Shown here: piece by piece, positions 1,759 to 19,175 of the stretch
Layout of the letters: every line of letters starts with the position of its first letter
Numbering within the stretch: position 1 is the first letter of the stretch
Origin: a virus
DNA: 23,305 nt
UHGV virus genome: UHGV-0337120
Direction: 5' to 3' (one strand)
The notes under the pieces: model-generated
What the model saw: only the letters and a program-made list of their open reading frames with translations
Told to the model about the DNA's origin: nothing
The model's database searches: none
Made by a program: the position numbers and the translations under genes

Positions 1759-2951
1759 TAGCTACCTCCAAGAGATGCAAAAGCAGAGCCAAAGAACTCG
1801 TCGGTAAACGTCTGATAGAGTTCCATACATTCCATCGGTGGTACGGGCGTGTATTTGTAGCGAATACGCACAATGCCCTGACGAAGACTGGTTGTATTGT
1901 TGTCGACAATATCGAACCAGCATTCCGCCCCAATGAGTTTTCCGGCTGTCACCAGTGCATCCAGCTTTGCCTTGATAGCGCTCACGGCATCCTTAGCATT
2001 GGCAGGCGTAAGCGGTGAATCCACTATCTGAAGTTGCGCCTCCGCAATGGTGTCAGCCAGTTGCTGCGCCGTACGTGTGTACACCTCAAAGATGTACTCC
2101 GCAGTTTCCGGCGTACGGTTACCCCAGAAACGGAAGGAGCCGTCGCCCTGGTGAATAAGAGTGGTCACCTCGCTGTTGTTCAGCGTGTTGGCATCGCTGT
2201 TTTCATCCTGAAGTGACCAGGAAACAGACGCTGACACCCCAAGAACATTTTTCACAGGCATGTTAGAAAGGGAGCGATGCCAGCCCTGTTCATGGTCGAG
2301 TCGGGCACGAAGACCGCACGCATACGCCGCAGCCGGGAAGGTTTCGTTTTTACCGGACACCGGGTTGAACGCAATGAAATCAGGCCACAGAAGCATGATT
2401 TCGCGACCGGAAATCTTTTTACGGAACGCAATAGCATCGGACGGTTTTGTGCAGCCAGGGCAGCCGGAATACGCAAATGCGCGCATTTTTCCGGCAACAG
2501 TCACCAGTGCAGCCGTGACAGCATCCGATTCAAGGCCCGGAGCGGCAAGAATGCGGGGTCGGCAACCAATACCTTCCATCTGTTCGGCAACCAGAAGCGC
2601 CTGCATACCGCTGTAGCTTCCGTCTTCTTCCGTGGTACCAATGACCAGTTGATCCTGTGTTTTATTCTCAGCCCCCTCTTTTGCCGCCTCCACGCGAACG
2701 ACAATCACCCGTGTACTGACCTGGTCAGATATCGCTTTAAGGGCCTTATAAAGCGTGCCCGCTTTCCCGGCCTTCCCCAGAACAGAAGATACACGGGTAA
2801 TCAGCACTGGCTTGTTAAGGGGGAACTGCCCGGTATCCGCATCATCTGCAACGGCAACAATACCAATGACGCTGGAATCAACGTCATTAATGGCCGTCAC
2901 AAGGTCGGTATTCTCCGTGACGCGCACACCGTGAAATCGTTTTTCAGCCAT
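1758..2951 (-). CDS. FI: Contractile tail sheath protein, gpFI-like
   Basis: Contains FPLNKPVLIT, identical to a remembered P2 FI segment, plus further sheath-like blocks (RILAAPGL, WPDF, RFWGNRT, YTPVPP). Start placed at ATG 2951 (MAEKRFHGV, GGTGA RBS) rather than the track's ATG at 2963. Confidence 0.9.
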   Translation of the reverse strand: MAEKRFHGVRVTENTDLVTAINDVDSSVIGIVAVADDADTGQFPLNKPVLITRVSSVLGKAGKAGTLYKALKAISDQVSTRVIVVRVEAAKEGAENKTQDQLVIGTTEEDGSYSGMQALLVAEQMEGIGCRPRILAAPGLESDAVTAALVTVAGKMRAFAYSGCPGCTKPSDAIAFRKKISGREIMLLWPDFIAFNPVSGKNETFPAAAYACGLRARLDHEQGWHRSLSNMPVKNVLGVSASVSWSLQDENSDANTLNNSEVTTLIHQGDGSFRFWGNRTPETAEYIFEVYTRTAQQLADTIAEAQLQIVDSPLTPANAKDAVSAIKAKLDALVTAGKLIGAECWFDIVDNNTTSLRQGIVRIRYKYTPVPPMECMELYQTFTDEFFGSAFASLGGS

Positions 2952-3026
2952 ACGATTCACCATCAGTTGTGTTTATGCTCGCCTGAATAATCCACCATTG
3001 GCGCACAGCCATCACCTGATGCGGGC

Positions 3027-3044
3027 TGTGGGGATTTTTTTACA
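3027..3044. promoter_or_regulatory. TGT-N12-ACA dyad, candidate Ogr-type late activator site between divergent FI and D
   Basis: TGTggggatttttttACA read directly; centred about 55 nt upstream of plausible -10 elements in both directions (TGATAC near 3081 for D; GATTAT on the minus strand near 2986-2991 for FI). Confidence 0.4.
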
Positions 3045-3104
3045 ACAGAGCCAGACAGAAACGACAAGGTACGCGTGGGATGATACGCACACGGGAGGGA
3101 TATC

Positions 3105-4250
3105 ATGAGCATCACTGAATCAGTAACACATCACATCAACAGCGCACTGGATGCAGCGGAAGATACCGTTAGGGTGCCAGACTTCACTATCACACTGGAA
3201 GGGAAAGATGCCAGCCTGAAGAACATCACGCAGCGCATCATGAGCCTGACCATGACAGACAACAGGGGTTTTGAGGCTGACAGGGTGACACTGGAAATCG
3301 ACGACGCCGACGGCGGGGTGGTACTTCCGGAACGCGGAACACGATTATCGCTGGCGATGGGGTGGAAAGGTGAAAGCCTCACTCGCAAGGGGACGTTTGT
3401 GGTGGACGAAGTGAGCCACGAAGGTCCGCCGGATAAGCTGACCATATCCGCGAACAGTGCGGATTTTCGCGAAGAGTTTAACGTGAAACGCGAAGTCTCC
3501 TGGCATGACGTGACCGTTGAGCGTGTGGTATCTGCCATCGCGCACCGTTACGGACTGAAAGCACAAATCAGCGAAATGCTGATGAATATCGAAATCGACC
3601 ATGCAGACCAGACAGAGGAAAGCGACATCTCGTTCCTCACGCGTATGGCTGACATGCTGGGTGCAATAACCACCGTAAAAAACGGGAGCCTGCTGTTCAT
3701 TCTGCCGGGTGGCGGTGTGACAGCCAGCGGGCGCGCCCTCCCCTCATTCGCCCTGACCCGCTCGGATGGCGACAGTCATCGCTTTCGCATTGCTGACAGA
3801 AAAGCCTATACCGGAGTGAAAGCTTACTGGCTGGATTTAAAGTTCGGCCAGAAGAAGGCCGTGAACGTGAAAAAGCGAAACGCGAAAACCACACAGAAGC
3901 CGGAGAAAAGCAGTTCACGGGAGGGTGGATACATGGAAGGCGCAGAAGGCAATGTATATGTGCTGAGAAAAACCTACCCGAACGAAGAAGCCGCGCGTCG
4001 CGCAGCTGCCGCACGCTGGCAGCAACTTCAGCGGGGTGCAGCAGAATTCAGCATCACGCTGGCGCGCGGACGCGCCGACCTGTATCCGGAGATGCACGGC
4101 ACGGTATCCGGGTTCAAGAGCGATATTGACAATCAGGACTGGGTTATTTCGCGCATTGAGCACGTCATCGACGACAGCGGCTTCACCACCAGACTGGAGC
4201 TGGAAGCAAAAATCGCAGACTGGATAGCAGAGCGCGCCACAACTGGCTAG
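3105..4250 (+). CDS. D: Tail protein / late control protein gpD-like
   Basis: 381 aa; blocks FTITLEGKD, LTMTDNRGFEADRV, SWHD, FLTRMA, GGYMEGAEGNV, AAEFSITLARGRADLYPE, DWVISRIEHV, GFTTRLELE align to P2 gpD from memory; GGGAGGG RBS. Confidence 0.9.
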   Translation: MSITESVTHHINSALDAAEDTVRVPDFTITLEGKDASLKNITQRIMSLTMTDNRGFEADRVTLEIDDADGGVVLPERGTRLSLAMGWKGESLTRKGTFVVDEVSHEGPPDKLTISANSADFREEFNVKREVSWHDVTVERVVSAIAHRYGLKAQISEMLMNIEIDHADQTEESDISFLTRMADMLGAITTVKNGSLLFILPGGGVTASGRALPSFALTRSDGDSHRFRIADRKAYTGVKAYWLDLKFGQKKAVNVKKRNAKTTQKPEKSSSREGGYMEGAEGNVYVLRKTYPNEEAARRAAAARWQQLQRGAAEFSITLARGRADLYPEMHGTVSGFKSDIDNQDWVISRIEHVIDDSGFTTRLELEAKIADWIAERATTG

Positions 4251-4725: not shown

Positions 4726-4866
4726 ATGCCGCAAAAAACGATCATCGTGAGCATTTTATGCTTAACCATGTTGTTGACCGTCTGGATGATACACCGTTCA
4801 CCGTGTGAGTTCAGACTTAACATCATGTGGTCAGAATTTGCGGCGTTCTTGCAGTGTAAACAGTAA
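4726..4866 (+). CDS. hok: Hok/Gef-family type I toxin-like small membrane protein (46 aa)
   Basis: Hand translation MPQKTIIVSILCLTMLLTVWMIHRSPCEFRLNIMWSEFAAFLQCKQ. Shares the spacing CLT-x9-S-x-CE-x-R-x6-E-x-AAF with Hok (R1); GGAG RBS 8 nt upstream; structured 3' region with hairpin at 4875-4896 and terminator at 4961-4991. Too short to appear in the ORF track. Confidence 0.6.
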   Translation: MPQKTIIVSILCLTMLLTVWMIHRSPCEFRLNIMWSEFAAFLQCKQ

Positions 4867-4960
4867 GAAACCGCAGCGGGGGTGAAAGCCCCCGCTATCC
4901 GGTTGCCGAAGGTTCGGTCGAAAGTCGCACCCTCACACGCAAGTCACAAAGAAAAACAAA

Positions 4961-4991
4961 GCCCGCAGCGTAAAAACTGTGGGCTTTTTTT
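4961..4991 (+). terminator. Rho-independent terminator (8-bp stem with one G-U pair, then T7)
   Basis: gcccgcag-cgtaaaaa-ctgtgggc followed by ttttttt. Confidence 0.6.
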
Positions 4992-5061
4992 GTTTAACAA
5001 CCTGGCGGTGAAAACAACAAGCAGAGATAGTCTCACCAAAAAAATTTAGAACGCCATGGCA

Positions 5062-5251
5062 ATATGTGGACAACTCGAAAAATAATCCTTTATTTTTCAT
5101 TGCATTACATCAGTTTTCGCGCCACCCGAAGGTGGCATAAGGGGGTAGCACGTATCGCTATCCCCCTTTATATATCAAATGGTTACGAGTTCAAAGTAGT
5201 TCGGAATAGTGCCATTTAGTCCCCGTTTATGGGCAAAATCTGGACAACTCC
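5062..5251. other. Candidate attP region: two direct copies of AT-N-TGGACAACTC flanking a hairpin-rich core
   Basis: aTGTGGACAactcg at 5063-5076 and atcTGGACAactcc at 5238-5251; from memory the P2 Int arm-site consensus is TGTGGACA. Two hairpins at 5121-5166 lie between them. Position between ogr and int matches P2 attP. Confidence 0.35.
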
Positions 5252-6222
5252 GCAACCGGATTGAACCTTACCGCGTCCTGGAGATAATCAGGTGCAAAGT
5301 GCGCATAGGTCATTGTTTGCTGAATTGTGCTGTGCCCTAAAATACGCTGAAGGGTAATAATGTTCCCTCCATTTATCATGAAATGAGTTGCGAATGTGTG
5401 CCGTAAAACATGCACAGACTGACCGACTGGTAAATCAGGCCGCACAGTCCTTATTGCACTTCTGACTATCGCATAACTGGGGTTCATTAATCTTCCAGTC
5501 GCTTTGACTTTAATCAGAGATTCAAGATCTTTAGCTATAGGAATAACCCGCCGCGATCCATTCTTTGTCTCCATGAAAATAACCTTCCCACCAATTATGT
5601 GTTCACCTTTAATATTGGCAACTTCACCCCAGCGCCCGCCTGTAGCCAAGCTTAACAATACAGCCTTAAGATTATCGCCAGATAAAAGTGCGGTTAGCCT
5701 AGGAATATCATCATGTGCAAGATAAGCCATTTCCGGCTGATTAATTGTTAGCTTGCGTATCTCGTGAAACGGGTTATCACCCACAAACTCTTCAACATCA
5801 ATCAGCTTTTCAAAGAAACCGCTCATCATTGCACAATAACGATTTACCGTTGACTGCTTAATTCCGCGATTCATTAATTCAAGGCGATATCTGATAATAT
5901 TTTTTCGGGTTAAGTGGTCACTTCTGTTAATACCAAGCTCTTGCATATCACGAAGAACCGCTTCAATTCTGACCCGATTCATCGCGCCATAACGATGATT
6001 CTTACCGTGGTACACCCACCACAGTTCCAGAAGATCGCTTAACGCTTTACGTTCAATAGGTTTTTCGACCCAGTCCTTATCGTGATAATGCGTCAGAACA
6101 TGGCGTTCATACATCGCCGCTTCACCACGGGTAGGAAATCGCCGCCGAAATCTTCTTCCTTCAGATCCAGCAGGCCGCACGTCCACACAGTATTTGCCAT
6201 CAGCGAGCTTCTTAATCGACAT
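5227..6222 (-). CDS. int: Tyrosine integrase, P2 Int family
   Basis: N-terminus MSIKKLADGKYCVDVRPAG matches P2 Int MAIKKLDDGRYEVDIRP; C-terminal HVLRHTFATHFMINGGNIITLQRILGH...YAHFAPDYLQDA carries the catalytic R-H-R-Y region. Start set at the ATG giving MSIKK (6222), not the track's 6258. Confidence 0.92.
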   Translation of the reverse strand: MSIKKLADGKYCVDVRPAGSEGRRFRRRFPTRGEAAMYERHVLTHYHDKDWVEKPIERKALSDLLELWWVYHGKNHRYGAMNRVRIEAVLRDMQELGINRSDHLTRKNIIRYRLELMNRGIKQSTVNRYCAMMSGFFEKLIDVEEFVGDNPFHEIRKLTINQPEMAYLAHDDIPRLTALLSGDNLKAVLLSLATGGRWGEVANIKGEHIIGGKVIFMETKNGSRRVIPIAKDLESLIKVKATGRLMNPSYAIVRSAIRTVRPDLPVGQSVHVLRHTFATHFMINGGNIITLQRILGHSTIQQTMTYAHFAPDYLQDAVRFNPVAELSRFCP

Positions 6223-9611: not shown

Positions 9612-9839
9612 ATGGTCGCCATCCTGAATGTGTGTTGCTGCCCCCCCCTGAACGTGGAAAGAAAAGCCCGCGCATCGCTGCGTTTATTCCGCGACGGCGT
9701 GCGGAATTTTTCACGCATAAAACCCCACGACTACCTGGTAATAAGAATCGGTTTCCGCTGGCGATTACTGAGCAAAAACAACGGGGCGTCATGGGATTTA
9801 TTAACGCACGAAACCTATAACAAAGAGGCCGCGTTATGA
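9612..9839 (+). CDS. Small basic Cys-rich ORF containing a C8 tract; stop overlaps dam start
   Basis: GAGGTGA RBS before ATG 9612; C8 homopolymer at 9641-9648 inside codons 10-13; TGA overlaps the dam ATG (TTATGAGC). Coding status uncertain. Confidence 0.3.
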   Translation: MVAILNVCCCPPLNVERKARASLRLFRDGVRNFSRIKPHDYLVIRIGFRWRLLSKNNGASWDLLTHETYNKEAAL

Positions 9840-12083: not shown

Positions 12084-12469
12084 AAACAACCTCCATTGTT
12101 AATAAACGCCGCTATCCCTCGGCGCATTCCATTTTTGCGCCGCGATTATACATACTTCAGCACGCAACACAAAAACCGCTTGCCAGCGCTCGTCGTGTCA
12201 GGTTACATTTCCGCTGCACCTCATAAAACGGGTGCCGGGATTTCCACCCCGCTGACAAACGAAGCGCACAGCCGCGCCAGCGGTTTTTTTGTGCGTACTG
12301 TATCGCCACGTCTTTTTCGCGTCAGAATTATGGCGGGGCGTACAGGGCCGACTTCGGTCGGGCCGGTTTCTTCGTTTGCCGGTTGTGGAAACCCTGTACG
12401 TCTCGCCACCCTGAGTTTTCCACCTCTGGTTGGTGAGTTTTCAAAATTCACAAACGAAGAGGCCACACC

Positions 12470-12759: not shown

Positions 12760-13176
12760 ATGAAGAGCGTTAAGGGGCTTTCAGATATTCAGGACTTTTT
12801 TAACTGGATGTGGGCGGTGGATCCCCTGCTGGCTTCCCGCCTGAACAACTGGCACGACTATTACCGCCGCGCCTGTAAACAGGCTGCCCGCAGCGTCACC
12901 ACATACGGGGATTTCTCCTTCACCGTGGACGGTCGTTACCGCGTGGACGTGAAAGGTGATGGTGATGGACTGGGTTTATTTCACATCAACGGCACCGACA
13001 GTACCGCCATCAGCTGGTCGTCATCAGAGATGGCGCTGGTTCTGGAAATGACAACCCACAGCGTGGCCGTGAAAGGTATATACACCGCAGAAGGTTTTAT
13101 CGGCGAATACCAGCGCCTTCTCGTGCTGTACCGCGCGGCGTTTCAGGTGGCAACTGCCGGGGAGTACGACGCATGA
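12760..13176 (+). CDS. Hypothetical protein upstream of A
   Basis: 138 aa; GGAGG RBS; stop overlaps A start (ATGA). Confidence 0.5.
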   Translation: MKSVKGLSDIQDFFNWMWAVDPLLASRLNNWHDYYRRACKQAARSVTTYGDFSFTVDGRYRVDVKGDGDGLGLFHINGTDSTAISWSSSEMALVLEMTTHSVAVKGIYTAEGFIGEYQRLLVLYRAAFQVATAGEYDA

Positions 13177-15686
13177 GTGACCGCAATGCACAGCTGGCGT
13201 ACCCGTGGAACGCACCGCTACCGGTTATCGATCCTGAAACGTTCGGCAGAGCACAACCAACCGCATTACGCCAGGCCATTCAGAGCTACATCAACGAGGA
13301 CATTCGCATTGATGCCAGACTGGATGAAGAAACCGTCTCCTTCCTGACAAACACAGACGAAGGCAAGCGAATTAATTCGCACCTTCACCACGACGAAGAG
13401 CGTCGGATCAGACTGGAAAAACTGGCGCGGCACAAACGCGAAAATCCGCCCACACTGGTATCTGAAGCCATGGCAGAGCTGCGCGCCCTGCCGCCGTTTC
13501 TTGCCAGTCCGCTCATCCGGGACCTGGCTCGCCTGAGCCGCAAACAGGAGAGCGCACGCCGGGAAGGGCTTAAGAATAACAGCGCATATGCGGCGGATAA
13601 CTTCGTTCGTCATGGGCTGCGTGCCCGCCTGAAACGTATCGCCCGTGTGAATGAACGCTTTGCCACCCCGGCCTTTAAGGCCACCGCCGCCCGCGAACGG
13701 CTGGATGAACTGCTTATACTGCCGCAGCTGAGCCGTGACGAAATCCAGCGCCTTGCCACCCTGACCGCCACCGCGTTTTCCGCCGCACTGGAGCGCGCAT
13801 GTGATGAGATCATCGAAAAGACCGGCAGGGGTGACGATGACCTGTTCACCTGGTTACTGACCTACCAGTCACTGGCACACATGGCGTTAAAACTGGGTAT
13901 CACGCCACCCTGCTGGCCGTCGCTGGAAATCAGGCCAGACCGCCGCACCGCCCCCAACCCGGAACGGGTGCCGGGTGCGGTCATGCGCCTTTCCTGTGCG
14001 ACATGGTGGAACAGTCAGTTAAGACACCTCCGGGACATCTGGCGTGAAGAGCTGTTACGCGCCGCAGGTCTGGTGTCACGTAAGACATCGGTATATATCA
14101 GCCATGAAGCGTTACTGGACTGGCGCGAAAAACGCCAGCGCACCCGCGATTTTCTGAAGGCCTGGGACATCGAGAACGAAGAGGGAGAACGGTTCAGCCT
14201 TGAGGATATCTACTGGGCAGGTCTCTCTAATCCGCGTAACCGCCGTAACGAGATGATGACCTGCGCCCGGGGAATGGAGCAGGTCGCCGAAGCACGCGGC
14301 GATGTGGCGTTTTTCGTCACCGTCACAGCCCCTTCCCGTTTTCACAGCGTGAACGATGACGGCAGTCTGAACCCGAAATACTGCGGGGCAACGGTACGCG
14401 ATGCCAGTGATTATCTGGTTTACCGCTTTTTCGCCGCCGTCCGCAGGGCCATCGACAAGGCCGGGCTGGGCTGGTACGGCGTGCGCACAGTGGAGCCCCA
14501 CCACGACGGTACACCGCACTGGCACATGCTGGTATTCACCAGCCAGGAAAACGAAGCCCGTATCACTGAAATCATGCGCAACGCCGCCATCAGGGAGGAC
14601 CGCGCAGAGCTGGGTGATGATATCTCCCCGCGTTTTAAATGCGAAAAAATCGACCCGGCAAAAGGCACACCGACAAGCTATATCGCGACCTATATCGGTA
14701 AGAACCTGGACGCCAGCGCCTTCATGGGAAATGACCCGAAAACCGGCAAACCTTACGTCGATAAGGAATCAGGCAAAACCATGGCCGAAACCGTGGAGAA
14801 CGCCATCGGCTGGGCAGGCCTTCACCGCATCCACCAGTTCCAGTTCTTCGGTATCCCGCCCCGCCAGGTATGGCGCGAACTCCGCAGCCTTGCCGGGCAG
14901 ATGGCCCGTAACCCGACTGCCCCACAGCGTCTGGACCATGACGACATTGACGCCATACTGGCCGCCGCCGACGTGGGATGTTTTGCCACCTATATCACCC
15001 GCCAGGGTGGTGTGCTCATTCCCCGCAACACGTACCTGGTCCGCACCGCATACGAAACTGCCGAAGAGGCCAACGACTACGGCGAATTCCCGCAACGCAT
15101 TTACGGCGTCCGCGCCCCGTTACTCGGGGAGCGCTACACCATATGCACCCACCCGGACACCTGGAAACTGGTCAGACGTAAGCCGGAAAACGAAGACCGC
15201 ACGGACGAGGGTTTTGACGTTGAGTGCGGCTTTGCCGCACCTTGGACTCGTGGCAATAACTGTCCCCATGATGAAAAAACAGACACCGGAGAGGGTAAAA
15301 CCCCACCACCGGAAGCCAGGAAAGAACAAAAACTGGTCGTCCCGGGAGGTGATTTGGGTGAGTGGTTAAGGTCACTGACCCCCACAAAGCGAAAACAACT
15401 CACCAGGCAGCTGAAAGATGCGACATCTGACACAAAAACCGTGAAAACCGGCAGCCCCACCACGCCCGATGACGTCATACATGTGCGTACAGCATTGCCG
15501 CTGACTGACGTCACCACCACCGTAATCAAGTCGGCACTGAGCGCGACGGGCGAGGAGCTACACAGTGGCGCAGCACTTTCCGTACACAGAGGTGCACGCG
15601 TTCGCCTGCCTGACGGGCGGATTGTGCACTGGGATGAGAAATCACGAAGCCTGGTGGCAGCAGATCAACCGGAGGTGAACCCATGA
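13173..15686 (+). CDS. A: Rolling-circle replication initiator, gpA-like
   Basis: 837 aa; VEPHHDGTPHWHMLVF matches P2 A VEPHHDGTPHWHMMLF (HUH-type metal motif); downstream GYIAKYISKN-like SYIATYIGKN also conserved. Confidence 0.92.
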   Translation: MSDRNAQLAYPWNAPLPVIDPETFGRAQPTALRQAIQSYINEDIRIDARLDEETVSFLTNTDEGKRINSHLHHDEERRIRLEKLARHKRENPPTLVSEAMAELRALPPFLASPLIRDLARLSRKQESARREGLKNNSAYAADNFVRHGLRARLKRIARVNERFATPAFKATAARERLDELLILPQLSRDEIQRLATLTATAFSAALERACDEIIEKTGRGDDDLFTWLLTYQSLAHMALKLGITPPCWPSLEIRPDRRTAPNPERVPGAVMRLSCATWWNSQLRHLRDIWREELLRAAGLVSRKTSVYISHEALLDWREKRQRTRDFLKAWDIENEEGERFSLEDIYWAGLSNPRNRRNEMMTCARGMEQVAEARGDVAFFVTVTAPSRFHSVNDDGSLNPKYCGATVRDASDYLVYRFFAAVRRAIDKAGLGWYGVRTVEPHHDGTPHWHMLVFTSQENEARITEIMRNAAIREDRAELGDDISPRFKCEKIDPAKGTPTSYIATYIGKNLDASAFMGNDPKTGKPYVDKESGKTMAETVENAIGWAGLHRIHQFQFFGIPPRQVWRELRSLAGQMARNPTAPQRLDHDDIDAILAAADVGCFATYITRQGGVLIPRNTYLVRTAYETAEEANDYGEFPQRIYGVRAPLLGERYTICTHPDTWKLVRRKPENEDRTDEGFDVECGFAAPWTRGNNCPHDEKTDTGEGKTPPPEARKEQKLVVPGGDLGEWLRSLTPTKRKQLTRQLKDATSDTKTVKTGSPTTPDDVIHVRTALPLTDVTTTVIKSALSATGEELHSGAALSVHRGARVRLPDGRIVHWDEKSRSLVAADQPEVNP

Positions 15687-16306: not shown

Positions 16307-16641
16307 AGACACCCAGAATGACCGGAAAGGTAATCATTTTACGCTACCTGGAAACGCACGCACGCTTCAGCGCACCAGAGCTGGTTGAAAAACTGGGCGT
16401 GAAAAGGACCATCATTAATCAGGCCGCCGGAAAGATGGTACGCGAAGGGCTGCTGGTTGTGGACGGGTACACGGACAAGATAACGCATTACCGGAAGCCA
16501 ACGGAAAAGGAACGACTGGAGCTGGAGCGGCGGGCTGAACAGCAACAAAAGCCGTCCGTAATCCAGGACTGCAAGCGAAGCGAAATCATGAAGCGAATTC
16601 TGTTTATCTACGGCGCTGGCGAAGAGCTGCCAGTCATCTAA
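16303..16641 (+). CDS. Putative winged-helix DNA-binding protein
   Basis: 112 aa from ATG 16303 (ATGA overlap with previous stop); segment LRYLETHARFSAPELVEKLGVKRTIINQAAGKMVREGLLVVDG looks like a MarR-like wHTH (fold-level guess). Confidence 0.45.
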   Translation: MKTPRMTGKVIILRYLETHARFSAPELVEKLGVKRTIINQAAGKMVREGLLVVDGYTDKITHYRKPTEKERLELERRAEQQQKPSVIQDCKRSEIMKRILFIYGAGEELPVI

Positions 16642-16673
16642 CCCCAACAATAAAACCAACACGGGAGACAAAT

Positions 16674-16991
16674 ATGCCAACACAGGTTGCAACAGAGGGA
16701 CGACTGGCAGCAGACCCGAACACAAGGAGAACAACCAAAGGAACCAACGTCACAACGGCACAACTGGCGGTATCACTACCCTGCCATGGCGCAGAACAGC
16801 CAACCACAATGTGGCTTTACCTTATTTCATTCGGGAAGCAGCACGAAGAACTGGCAAAACACAGAAAAGGCGATCTGATTCTGGTGCACGGAAACTTGCA
16901 GGTAAACAGGTATCAGGACAAGTACGGGCAACAGAAAGAGGGCTGGCAGTTGCTGGCGCAAAGCATTATCAGCTCAAGAACCGGGCGATGA
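16674..16991 (+). CDS. Truncated SSB-like OB-fold protein lacking the acidic C-terminal tail
   Basis: 105 aa; G.L..DP..R.T..G..V....LAVS...W....FGK..E......KG....V.G.L....Y.D..GQ aligns with the E. coli SSB OB-fold from memory; no Gly-rich linker or DDDIPF tail. Confidence 0.5.
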   Translation: MPTQVATEGRLAADPNTRRTTKGTNVTTAQLAVSLPCHGAEQPTTMWLYLISFGKQHEELAKHRKGDLILVHGNLQVNRYQDKYGQQKEGWQLLAQSIISSRTGR

Positions 16992-17001
16992 CTTCACGCA
17001 T

Positions 17002-17041
17002 GTTACCCTCAGCAGCGAGGGTAACACAGGATTTCTTTTTT
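17002..17041 (+). terminator. Terminator hairpin between convergent genes
   Basis: Perfect 9-bp stem GTTACCCTC-agcagc-GAGGGTAAC, T-run at 17034-17039. Confidence 0.55.
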
Positions 17042-17547
17042 CAGTCAAACCGAAATCGGCCGCTTGTCGCGTATGCATAGGTGACCACCGCACCCAGCGC
17101 ATTCACACGCTTCTTCACATAAATCACATTACCATCCTGATAGTCACCGTATGGGTAGCAAATAAAGATTGTTTTTTGCAAATCAGGATCATCAACAAAT
17201 GCCCCTGAACAACTTTTTGAGCTACCGCGACTGTACTCATAGGGAGCGGAATAGAATGAATCTTCACCCGGAAGAAAATATATCAGCGTAACCAGGAGGG
17301 TAAACAGAATCATCCAGGTAAGAAGGCACATACCCGAAAAAAACTTAAGATACGATGTAACCCCGGTAAATTTAGACCGATCAACCAGGTTCTTTTTCAA
17401 CAGGCACAGTGAGACAAAAACCGAAAGCACCACAGACACTGAAACAAGGCAGTTTGTCGTGAACGAATAAAGGTAGGTAATTCTGTAAACATCGTTTCGC
17501 CACCAAATAAAAAGAAAAATCCCCCCCCAAAACAGAAAGCGTGACAA
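17041..17547 (-). CDS. Multi-TM membrane protein with C-terminal soluble domain (cargo candidate in A-cos region)
   Basis: 168-aa ORF, AT-rich; three hydrophobic segments then ~75-aa Y/G/D-rich tail; only TTG/GTG starts available; G8 tract (plus C8 17521-17528) within first 10 codons. Confidence 0.45.
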   Translation of the reverse strand: MSRFLFWGGIFLFIWWRNDVYRITYLYSFTTNCLVSVSVVLSVFVSLCLLKKNLVDRSKFTGVTSYLKFFSGMCLLTWMILFTLLVTLIYFLPGEDSFYSAPYEYSRGSSKSCSGAFVDDPDLQKTIFICYPYGDYQDGNVIYVKKRVNALGAVVTYAYATSGRFRFD

Positions 17548-17660
17548 AAGTTAAATAAGGATATGAGTAATTTTTCACAGTTCTCACCCGGCAATACACC
17601 ACTGATTCAGACAGATGATTATCATCACCACCCACCCCCAAAAATCGCAAGATAAAAAAT

Positions 17661-17690
17661 GCACAAAAGCGCACGAAATTGCACAATTTT
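17661..17690. repeat. Three helically phased 10-bp GCAC repeats upstream of the membrane-protein gene
   Basis: gcacaaaagc / gcacgaaatt / gcacaatttt start at 17661, 17671, 17681, exactly 10 bp apart. Confidence 0.35.
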
Positions 17691-17782
17691 TCTTATGTGT
17701 TTCATCCCCATTCAGCCCAGTAACGGCGCTGGCTGAGGCCGGTTTGCACGGTGCACGAAAAACGAGGCAATTGCAGCGCGCA

Positions 17783-17801
17783 GGCGACGAGGGAAGGGCG
17801 C
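17783..17801. other. Candidate cos (cohesive-end) site
   Basis: GGCGACGAGGGAAGGGCGC, G-rich 19-mer about 330 bp beyond the 3' end of Q; loosely resembles the P2/186 cos 19-mer recalled from memory (GGCGAGGCGGGGAAAGCAC). Uncertain. Confidence 0.25.
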
Positions 17802-18081
17802 CCGAATTGAGGGGTGGAAGGCAGGTTGCTTTATTTGGGGTCGTATTGCGCGTGATACGCCAGCAGTGAAGCCTGTTTTAAAAAACCACACCGAAACAGA
17901 GTCAGAAAAACAGGCCGCCAGAATGCGTCTGGTTGAGTTTTACGGGGTCGGGATTAAATGCGGAAACATCACACCGCAGGCATGACGCGAAAAAGAGAAA
18001 AACCACAGCAAAACATAATGTTAAATGTTATTGATGAGTTGAGAAGCGAAAGGTGTATTGCGTTGACAGAGCTGGAGAGTC

Positions 18082-18106
18082 GGGGCATAAATTTTTTATG
18101 CCCCGG
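18082..18106. other. Perfect 11-bp inverted repeat downstream of Q
   Basis: CGGGGCATAAA-ttt-TTTATGCCCCG, 26 bp beyond the Q stop; no clear U-tract on either strand. Confidence 0.4.
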
Positions 18107-18131
18107 CGAAGCAGCCGACAAGCGAAGCGCG

Positions 18132-19175
18132 TCAGCTGGCGCCATCCTGAAGCAGCGAATAGGGATTAAAGCGCATCACTTCAACCCCAAGCCATTCATT
18201 GACATGCTTCATCGCTTCCATGACCGGTTGCAACTCGTTGATGAAAAATACCCTCGCCGCCTTCTCAACGTCACCGAACGCCGCGTTCCCGTCAGGCATT
18301 GCCCCCATCAGCTGAGGCGGTACACGGTGAGCCGCAAGGATATCGTCGCGGGCACTCCCCTTGATGTTAAGGAATTCGTCCTTCGCGGTGATTTGCTGGA
18401 ACGGCAGTATTTGCACACCATCCTTGCCGCCACCTGGCGCGTGCAGAAGGATATTGCGGAACGCCCCCTTGCCACGGGATTCCGTGAGTGTTTTCTTGAT
18501 GGCTTCCACGCTTTCAGCGTTTGCCTGGGCGGCACCAACATAGACAATGCACCCGGCATGTGAACCGTTGTCATAGTAGAGCTTGCGGAACGTATCCGCT
18601 GAGTTCGACAGACTCACCGACAGCAACCCACCGATATACTCCGGCATCCCGTAGATTTCCTGGTTGATATCGGGGTTCAGAACGTGGCACACAGCCCCCT
18701 TACGGAAAGCAAATTCAGAACCATCATCATTGAGGTACCAGTACGTATCGAGATCACTGCCCCGCCGCGTGTATTTCGCCAGCGCAGGACGAAGCGCAAT
18801 GGGTTCACCGAACTTGTTGCGGCGGACTTCAAGATAGGCATTACCGAACACGAACCAGTCCAGCGCAAACGCGGAAAACGCCTGGCGGGACAGTAGCGGA
18901 TGAGGAACAAAGCAGCCGTTCAGGGCATTACGCTTAAAATACAGGGCCGACTGGTGCCATGATGCACGACGCGAGGCGCGAGCAATGGCATTCCAGTCCA
19001 TGGGGGTGTCATAGTAGCGGCCATTATCGGCGCACGACATGTTATCAAGCAGATCAAGACGGCTTGCTTCATAAGGACCGTCAAACGTGAAAGCACTGAG
19101 TGACGGCGCTGATTTCAGTGCATCAGCCAGTGAGCCCGTGCCGCGCTTTCCGGTGTATTTTTTACGTTTACTCAT
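18132..19175 (-). CDS. Q: Portal protein, gpQ-like
   Basis: 347 aa; blocks EPDINQEIYGMPEY, YDNGSHAG, LAAHRVPPQLMG, GDVEKAARVF match P2 Q from memory. Confidence 0.92.
   Translation of the reverse strand: MSKRKKYTGKRGTGSLADALKSAPSLSAFTFDGPYEASRLDLLDNMSCADNGRYYDTPMDWNAIARASRRASWHQSALYFKRNALNGCFVPHPLLSRQAFSAFALDWFVFGNAYLEVRRNKFGEPIALRPALAKYTRRGSDLDTYWYLNDDGSEFAFRKGAVCHVLNPDINQEIYGMPEYIGGLLSVSLSNSADTFRKLYYDNGSHAGCIVYVGAAQANAESVEAIKKTLTESRGKGAFRNILLHAPGGGKDGVQILPFQQITAKDEFLNIKGSARDDILAAHRVPPQLMGAMPDGNAAFGDVEKAARVFFINELQPVMEAMKHVNEWLGVEVMRFNPYSLLQDGAS

Follow-up and report, generated by a model that had tools for sequence, protein, structure and literature searches.

The window analysed here, the whole 23,305-nucleotide stretch of viral DNA UHGV-0337120, is a P2-like prophage that carries, between its early/replication operon and its candidate cos site, a single accessory gene on the minus strand whose reading frame is broken by one extra G. 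The native form of this cargo gene begins at a GTG at position 17578 and encodes, when an early G tract counts seven bases (G7), a protein of 178 aa with three transmembrane (TM) helices. In the window the tract counts eight bases (G8), and comparison with the G7 relatives shows this copy to be a predicted loss-of-function allele. We hold this anatomy, gene and frameshift taken together, with high confidence. The original prediction had described a 168-aa membrane protein encoded by the same DNA; the corresponding open reading frame (ORF) does start at a TTG and is present at 17041-17547, but its product is an artefact of the frameshift and not the protein that the gene encodes. The gene itself is already catalogued, and the window adds a frameshifted member to a known locus. 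The features on which this reading is built are the following.

17041-17578, minus strand: cargo gene, frameshifted in the window; it starts at GTG 17578, and its G7 form (WP_000801013.1) has 178 aa and three TM helices.
17521-17528, minus strand: G8 homopolymer (C8 on the plus strand), one base longer than the consensus G7, which encodes Leu-Gly-Gly in TM1.
17381-17578, minus strand: frame that is open from the native GTG in the window; its 65-aa translation consists of 19 native and then 46 out-of-frame residues.
17041-17547, minus strand: the 168-aa TTG-initiated ORF, a downstream remnant without half of TM1.
17583-17588, minus strand: Shine-Dalgarno-like GGTGAG, 4 nt upstream of GTG 17578, as read from the sequence.

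In RefSeq, a 537-nt coding sequence (CDS) for WP_000801013.1 (178 aa) is annotated at the same place in Escherichia coli G7 prophages that are 96-99% identical to the window, and the deletion of one G from the window tract yields a 178-aa ORF identical to this protein. The homologs of Salmonella and of lambdoid phages begin at the equivalent MKNYSY or MKKDSY, and a homology search retrieved one 210-aa protein that is 100% identical, together with about 40 relatives at 45-57% identity. With GTG 17578 as the first codon, the G run spans codons 17-19; the run that the original prediction had noticed is therefore real, but it does not lie in the first codons of the gene. With the eighth G, translation that begins at the native GTG is out of frame beyond codon 19 and cannot yield the full-length protein from the window. 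Upstream of the TTG of the 168-aa ORF (AATTACTCATATCCTTATTTAACTT) no Shine-Dalgarno sequence is found, and as judged from the reading frames this ORF is a non-native by-product of the frameshift. In an exact-sequence index its exact product occurs on only 2 contigs, as compared with more than 2000 for the G7 products of 178, 181, 210 and 235 aa.

It had also been pointed out that a one-base change would join the 168-aa ORF to an overlapping, TTG-initiated frame at 17381-17686 (minus strand). Indeed, the loss of one G joins both frames, and the resulting 210- and 235-aa products have actually been called by gene callers in G7 relatives. The TTG- or GTG-extended forms of 101, 210 and 235 aa were rejected as true N-termini, because the extension passes through the boundary of the cargo module and the repeats that flank cos, and because it is absent from the homologs. 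The G run is thereby an annotation trap: at least five protein lengths (168, 178, 181, 210 and 235 aa) exist in public databases for one gene, and some of the over-long forms reach through the cos flank.

The length of the tract varies between isolates. Among the fetched loci it was G7 in 31, G8 in three and G9 in one, and two further loci (L055, E. coli S19-651, and L058, JNEC-KY203) carry an interrupted tract, GGGAGGG, which is synonymous and leaves the protein unchanged; by their sequence these two alleles should be slippage-resistant. A length-agnostic pattern scan of metagenome contigs returned G7 at 12 of 12 loci. In the complete genomes of E. coli, 22 places cover the region in full length; a direct reading gave G7 for nine of them and for another prophage in one of the nine genomes, GGGAGGG is present at two, DETEC-S792 has G8 and STEC17-183 has G9, and in neither of the last two is the cargo CDS annotated in RefSeq. 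At least four haplotypes carry G8 or G9 tracts, and for three of these a G7 sister has been sequenced. The window has its gene haplotype in common with a separate assembly (L005), and the allele L001 is the corresponding G7 form; the G8 contig L006 has a different haplotype, DETEC-S792 is identical to a G7 prophage of JNEC-KY204 except for the tract, and the G9 strain STEC17-183 has the G7 sister SCU-106. Only two G/C runs of seven or more bases occur in the window, the cargo tract and a C8 run at 9641-9648, which is in frame within the 75-aa ORF of a ParE-like toxin (9612-9839, plus strand) and intact in all relatives checked; the ParE-like protein is identical to WP_000225756.1, which is annotated in relatives, DETEC-S792 included. 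Systematic homopolymer error was rejected as an explanation for the off-length tracts, because neither this second C8 run nor any of the long core genes is disrupted. The comparison of alleles thus shows a real and recurrent slippage hot spot and not a conserved switch.

Two other explanations of the eighth G, both already raised in the original prediction, have to be weighed against this. That it is a sequencing or assembly error, and that the source organism has an intact G7, we consider quite unlikely. Long-read indel errors classically fall in homopolymers, G7 is overwhelmingly the commonest state, and the window CDS is otherwise identical to the G7 allele L001, but the same G8 allele on the same haplotype is present in L005, an assembly with four further differences from the window, and the second G8 contig represents another haplotype. 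Moreover, the core genes of the window for replication endonuclease A (837 aa), the large terminase (592 aa) and the portal protein (347 aa) are intact, as is its other C8 run.

Very unlikely, in our view, is a selected contingency locus, in which reversible slippage would switch lysogen populations between ON (G7) and OFF (G8, G9). Some features expected of phase variation are indeed present. The tract sits early in the coding region and sets the frame, with G7 in frame and G8 and G9 out of frame, and all three lengths occur naturally among close isolates, where the off-length alleles represent at least four independent events on as many haplotypes. Two Logan read-run assemblies, independent of each other, also have G8, and the second C8 run of the window is stable. 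However, the two states are not both common, as OFF alleles account for 2 of the 22 places in complete genomes (at most about 9%), for none of the 12 metagenome loci and for the 2 index contigs mentioned above, and the tract is not kept in the orthologs. Salmonella encodes the same Leu-Gly-Gly by CTTGGAGGC, a run is missing from the lambdoid copies, and in two E. coli alleles it is interrupted. A tract of seven to eight G is also short for high-frequency switching in mismatch-repair-proficient E. coli. What stands of the proposed switch is that the length of the tract decides whether the protein is made; frequencies and conservation speak against selection for switching. The natural G8 and G9 alleles would in any case be ready negative controls for phenotype work. 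E. coli JNEC-KY204 (NZ_AP045180.1) harbors two P2-like prophages, at about 2.057 Mb and at 4.693 Mb (L052), with the cargo gene at the hot spot in each; the copy at 4.693 Mb is an intact G7 allele.

The locus of the cargo gene is the cos-proximal hot spot of P2-like phages, which lies between the gpA-side early genes and cos and in which P2 carries old and tin. Its boundaries in the window are given by the features below.

16990-17655, no strand: swappable cargo module of 666 bp with one gene and 42.9% GC.
16674-16991, plus strand: SSB gene, with which the early/replication operon ends; left flank of the hot spot.
18132-19175, minus strand: portal gene (P2 Q homolog), 347 aa, right flank of the hot spot.
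17001-17040, plus strand: perfect 10-bp hairpin (arms 17001-17010 and 17017-17026) followed by a T-rich run, from an inverted-repeat search.

The extent of the module follows from a prophage with different cargo, a DUF4760 gene (L021), as the alignment of this prophage with the window is confined to 16600-16989 and 17656-17951. Conserved flanks thus enclose different contents, with homology resuming at 16989 and 17656, and the cargo gene lies between the gpA-side early genes and cos/gpQ, as is typical for the hot spot. The gene order across the locus is replication endonuclease, MarR, SSB, cargo, cos-like 19-mer, portal and terminase, which bears out the placement between the early/replication operon and cos (SSB at 16674-16991, 19-mer at 17783-17801) that had been predicted. 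The AT-richness noted in the original prediction could be confirmed as well, with 42.2% GC in the cargo gene as compared with 53.5-54.5% in the flanks. From the start of the gene to the module boundary there are 77 bp. The hairpin likely serves, to judge by its sequence, as a terminator between the convergent SSB and cargo genes; a consensus terminator scan did not pick it up. The description of the gene as an independently oriented single-gene cargo also holds, and the lysogenic-conversion exclusion genes of P2, old and tin, occupy the same slot and likewise point leftward, away from cos. Their products, the cytoplasmic ATPase/nuclease Old and the T4 gp32-targeting Tin, are soluble and unrelated to the membrane protein of the cargo gene.

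The P2 hot spot has been surveyed by Rousset et al. 2022 (Cell Host Microbe; PMC9122126), whose Table S5B lists the cargo protein as system #4, with 470 occurrences, no Pfam domain and the remark "3 TM". The window shares with the hot-spot cargo described there the slot and the behaviour as a swappable module. The listed sequence equals the repaired protein, except that its start is called three codons upstream (MRTVKNYSY...), whereas the window copy differs by the +1 frameshift. The possibility that this would turn out to be a known conserved phage gene had been considered in the original prediction; the gene does figure both in PHROG 1416 and in Table S5B, but no function is attached to it. 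As the fourth most frequent occupant of the hot spot in E. coli, the intact protein is an abundant candidate for functional work. The window copy alone, an accessory gene that has been inactivated, lies in a prophage hot spot already well described, which makes the finding largely ordinary.

Homologs of the cargo protein are found in the same slot of P2-like prophages of Salmonella and of other E. coli, and the lambdoid phages 434, 2B8 and mEp332 have a 52%-identical copy between xis and exo, antisense to the pL operon. All relatives with more than 48% identity lie in prophage cargo slots, of two unrelated phage types. The lambdoid homolog sits behind a putative membrane ORF of 56 aa (ORF at 4755-4925 and homolog at 4965-5531 in phage 434, L003; 1632-1802 and 1806-2408 in mEp332, L004). 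This small ORF has no match in PHROG, and together with the homolog it could be a two-gene version of the system, judging from the arrangement. An exhaustive search with a hidden Markov model retrieved just 57 cluster representatives. Pfam, NCBIfam and PADLOC scans, for which the queries were the ORF as called, the protein after repair and 30 members of the family, gave no match above the cut-off. The sole family match was to phrog_1416, which has no annotation and aligned to the C-terminal 90 residues (E = 8e-50); this profile is also matched by the homologs from Salmonella, lambdoid phages and chromosomes. The profile spans the C-terminal domain only, probably because its member genes have been called too short. 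When the PDB was searched with a sequence profile, no match fell below E = 0.15. At the DNA level, the region had no megablast match among 50,697 phage records, and a distant DNA search of phage records returned only the cos flank of Enterobacter phage phiT5282H. We found no paper that names WP_000801013, and the supplements of DefensePredictor do not contain the cargo protein.

The structure of the intact protein was modeled with AlphaFold (AF2), using the 210-aa G7 gene call (P0001) as query and a 30-sequence alignment. The model reached a predicted local distance difference test score (pLDDT) of 86.6 and a predicted template modeling score (pTM) of 0.75, and it contains helices at residues 38-61, 70-93 and 105-133, followed by a five-strand beta domain of about 75 aa; Phobius agrees on three TM helices. 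A first model from a 12-sequence alignment was poor (pLDDT 58.8) and was discarded in favor of this one. Counts of Lys and Arg across the family, read by the positive-inside rule, give a net charge of +2.0 for the TM2-TM3 loop, +1.1 for the N-terminal tail and +0.5 for the TM1-TM2 loop. These charges place the N-terminal tail and the TM2-TM3 loop in the cytoplasm, and therefore the TM1-TM2 loop and the C-terminal domain outside. We thus infer an N-in/C-out insertion with a predicted periplasmic beta domain. That domain has exactly two cysteines, conserved in 29 of 30 and in 30 of 30 sequences, and this pair is probably disulfide-bonded. Fold searches gave nothing significant, and the weak Foldseek matches were mostly to OB-type barrels.

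For the intact protein, the function that we consider most likely, if still tentatively, is superinfection exclusion at the level of the envelope. This assignment is favored because the gene is prophage cargo in two unrelated phage types and occupies a slot known for exclusion genes, and because it is a single gene in its own orientation whose conserved domain is predicted to face the periplasm. In the prophage, the intact protein would be made from its own weak promoter, would sit in the envelope and would there interfere with the genome entry of incoming phages, in a mode that we liken to that of P22 SieA, HK97 gp15 and T4 Imm. SieA of P22 is an inner-membrane protein of 162-164 aa with three TM helices that alone is sufficient to block DNA injection; it is expressed at a low level from its own promoter and needs no partner proteins (PMC10883804). 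SieA and the intact cargo protein are alike in that each is encoded by a single prophage gene, has about 165-180 aa and is predicted to have three TM helices.

A number of results weigh against an exclusion role. Homology to SieA was rejected, as hhalign of the family profile (A4) against P22 SieA gave a probability of 0.3% and one aligned column. The two proteins belong to different families (SieA to PHROG 7745, the cargo protein to PHROG 1416), and the homology by which SieA types A-C are recognized, including the FxRYPxEAxxFNK motif, was not found in the cargo protein. The conserved motif of SieA is predicted to be cytoplasmic, whereas the conserved part of the cargo protein is the predicted periplasmic beta domain with the cysteine pair. 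Three family members had no match in PADLOC-DB v2 at E <= 1, none of 30 members reached the cut-off of a Pfam family, including the SieB and Imm exclusion families, and NCBIfam and the annotated PHROG families gave no match either. The cargo protein is also absent from those supplementary files of Rousset et al. 2022 that name the cloned systems. A scan for the sigma-70 consensus upstream of the cargo gene found no promoter, and a guess by eye yielded only TTGCGA (17650-17645) and GATGAT (17626-17621) with an 18-nt spacer, which match at 8 of 12 positions. The predicted exposure of the beta domain comes from the positive-inside rule and the model. Finally, four remote homologs are chromosomal, non-prophage and without defence genes nearby, and such contexts fit a general envelope function no less than they fit defence.

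It is the latter result that leads to the strongest competing explanation, according to which the protein is an envelope factor of the lysogenic-conversion or housekeeping type that has no anti-phage role and is a mere passenger in the cargo slots of prophages; it might, for example, confer immunity to a toxin that acts in the periplasm, help the envelope to tolerate stress or modulate a surface glycosylation pathway. One remote homolog is a neighbor of a sucrose operon; for others the surroundings are YmgB-like genes, or an OprD porin gene follows downstream, and neither phage nor defence genes are close by. At one of these loci (L047) the homolog (687-1208) overlaps by 4 nt a gene for a nucleotidyltransferase of the NTP_transf_6 family (1205-1753), which is followed by a gene for a PMT-type glycosyltransferase (1865-3322) and then by an OprD porin gene, an arrangement that hints, by gene order, at an envelope-related operon. 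The missing match in defence databases fits a non-defence role as well, and the P2 hot spot is known to hold cargo other than defence genes, such as partition systems and cytolethal distending toxin (PMC9122126). On the other side, the confinement of all relatives above 48% identity to prophage cargo slots of two unrelated phage types, and the strong enrichment of the P2 slot for exclusion genes, are not what such a role would lead one to expect, and we consider it doubtful, although to be taken seriously.

An abortive-infection effector, which would permeabilize or depolarize the inner membrane upon infection and kill the cell before phages are released, appears unlikely. Transmembrane proteins of the hot spot are generally regarded as suicide effectors (PMC9122126), and the recurrent loss-of-function slips would fit a costly or toxic protein. 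However, the gene stands alone, without a sensor partner in the P2 slot, where only 77 bp separate its start from the boundary; its sole soluble domain is predicted to lie in the periplasm, on the far side of the membrane from phage cues in the cytoplasm; and its fold is unlike that of known pore formers.

The second element that had drawn attention to this region is a set of three GCAC-containing decamers upstream of the cargo gene, spaced exactly 10 bp apart. They are present as described, with GCAC at 17661, 17671 and 17681, and shuffles indicate that the pattern, which occurs once in the window, would be expected 0.01 times. Their reading as an operator specific for the cargo gene could not be upheld. 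Relative to the module boundary at 17655/17656, the repeats belong to the backbone, they are kept in a prophage with different cargo and in phiT5282H, and they are shared with P2, 186 and P4. Instead, we regard them with fair confidence, on sequence grounds, as conserved packaging elements of the cos flank. The relevant positions are as follows; offsets of TGCAY were counted from the first base of the cohesive end.

17660-17684, plus strand: three phased decamers with TGCAC, CGCAC and TGCAC, at -123, -113 and -103 from the cos-like 19-mer.
17745-17756, plus strand: two cos-proximal TGCAC motifs, at -38 and -31.
17783-17801, plus strand: cos-like 19-mer GGCGACGAGGGAAGGGCGC, 13/19 identical to the P2 cohesive end and aligned with the annotated cosR of P2.
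TGCAY offsets in P2: -123, -111, -101 and -29 (TGCAT at -29).
TGCAY offsets in P4 and 186: -124, -111, -101, -36 and -29 (TGCAT at -29, TGCA at -36).
TGCAY offsets in the window: -123, -113, -103, -38 and -31.

The cos site of P2, P4 and 186 was described by Ziermann and Calendar 1990 (cited in PMC9122126, PMC9594776 and PMC5694545). Between the end of the early operon and gpQ, the window has a 19-nt sequence homologous to GGCGAGGCGGGGAAAGCAC, with 13 of 19 positions identical, so that 17783-17801 is a candidate cos site of the P2 type. In P2, P4 and 186, TGCAY motifs occur at about -30 and from -101 to -124, and likewise in the window, where the distances agree within about 2 nt. The units differ in that they read TGCAC in the window, shifted by 2 nt, and TGCAT in P2, P4 and 186. 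The satellite P4 has essentially only the packaging site in common with P2 (PMC9122126; PMC9594776), and the conservation of the repeats in P4 therefore points to a role in packaging and not in the regulation of the cargo gene. We infer that the TGCAY repeats are putative binding sites of the small terminase subunit.

Two points speak against a packaging role of the distal repeats. The published cos core of P2/P4 comprises 55 bp (PMC9594776, PMC5694545) and the distal TGCAY triplet lies outside of it, and we found no paper that gives this triplet a role. A cosmid study reported a more than 1000-fold better transduction with longer cos flanks, the cause of which was left unmapped (PMC9594776); this is compatible with a packaging role of the TGCAY repeats and no proof of it. 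The array is accordingly of interest as a candidate for the extended packaging signal beyond the 55-bp core that the cosmid work suggests. The start of the old-tin mRNA of P2 is located about 150 bp away from cosR, a short way downstream of the TGCAT repeats, and as the old-tin promoter abuts the first repeat (from transcript starts annotated at 33424/33426 and from reading the sequence), a secondary influence of the repeats on leftward transcription is conceivable.

All of these elements can be joined into one reading, in which the cargo protein would represent a new class of envelope exclusion factors (an OB-like barrel in the periplasm, disulfide-bonded and joined to three TM helices, without any functionally known relatives), would be toggled by reversible G7 slippage in the P2 lineage of E. 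coli, and would lie next to a TGCAY triplet, 100-125 bp from cos, that would be the so far unmapped small-terminase binding array shared by P2, 186 and P4. As a whole we consider this highly unlikely to be correct. If it were true, slippage of the G7 tract would let lysogen populations hedge between the exclusion of rival phages and sparing the cost of the protein.

As to the remainder of the window, it begins in the order of the plus strand with the tail sheath gene and gpD, followed by the integrase and Cox genes and then by the early operon. The latter contains genes for an Rv2179c-like exonuclease, the ParE-like toxin, a D12 methylase and replication endonuclease A, small genes, a MarR-like gene and SSB. 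Beyond the portal gene, the large terminase gene (592 aa) lies on the minus strand.

13173-15686: replication endonuclease A, 837 aa.

Between cos and the portal gene there are three AAAAACCACACCG-like direct repeats (17881-17893, 17964-17976 and 17998-18010). The homology with the prophages of STEC17-183, SCU-106 and JNEC-KY208 stops at 17954, where these have a plus-strand gene of 167 aa (WP_000017881.1), and this break suggests, by alignment, that there is another variable junction, on the side of cos toward Q. An ATG-initiated ORF of 201 aa at 17958-18563 (plus strand) runs antisense over the 3' end of the portal gene; its start coincides with the break in homology to some relatives, and it is probably spurious. 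A scan of 16900-18200 with Rfam gave no match to an RNA family, and inside the early operon two matches exceeded the gathering score, the Hfq-binding RNA isrK at 12216-12290 (plus strand, 64 bits) and the C4 antisense RNA at 12326-12413 (plus strand, 82 bits).

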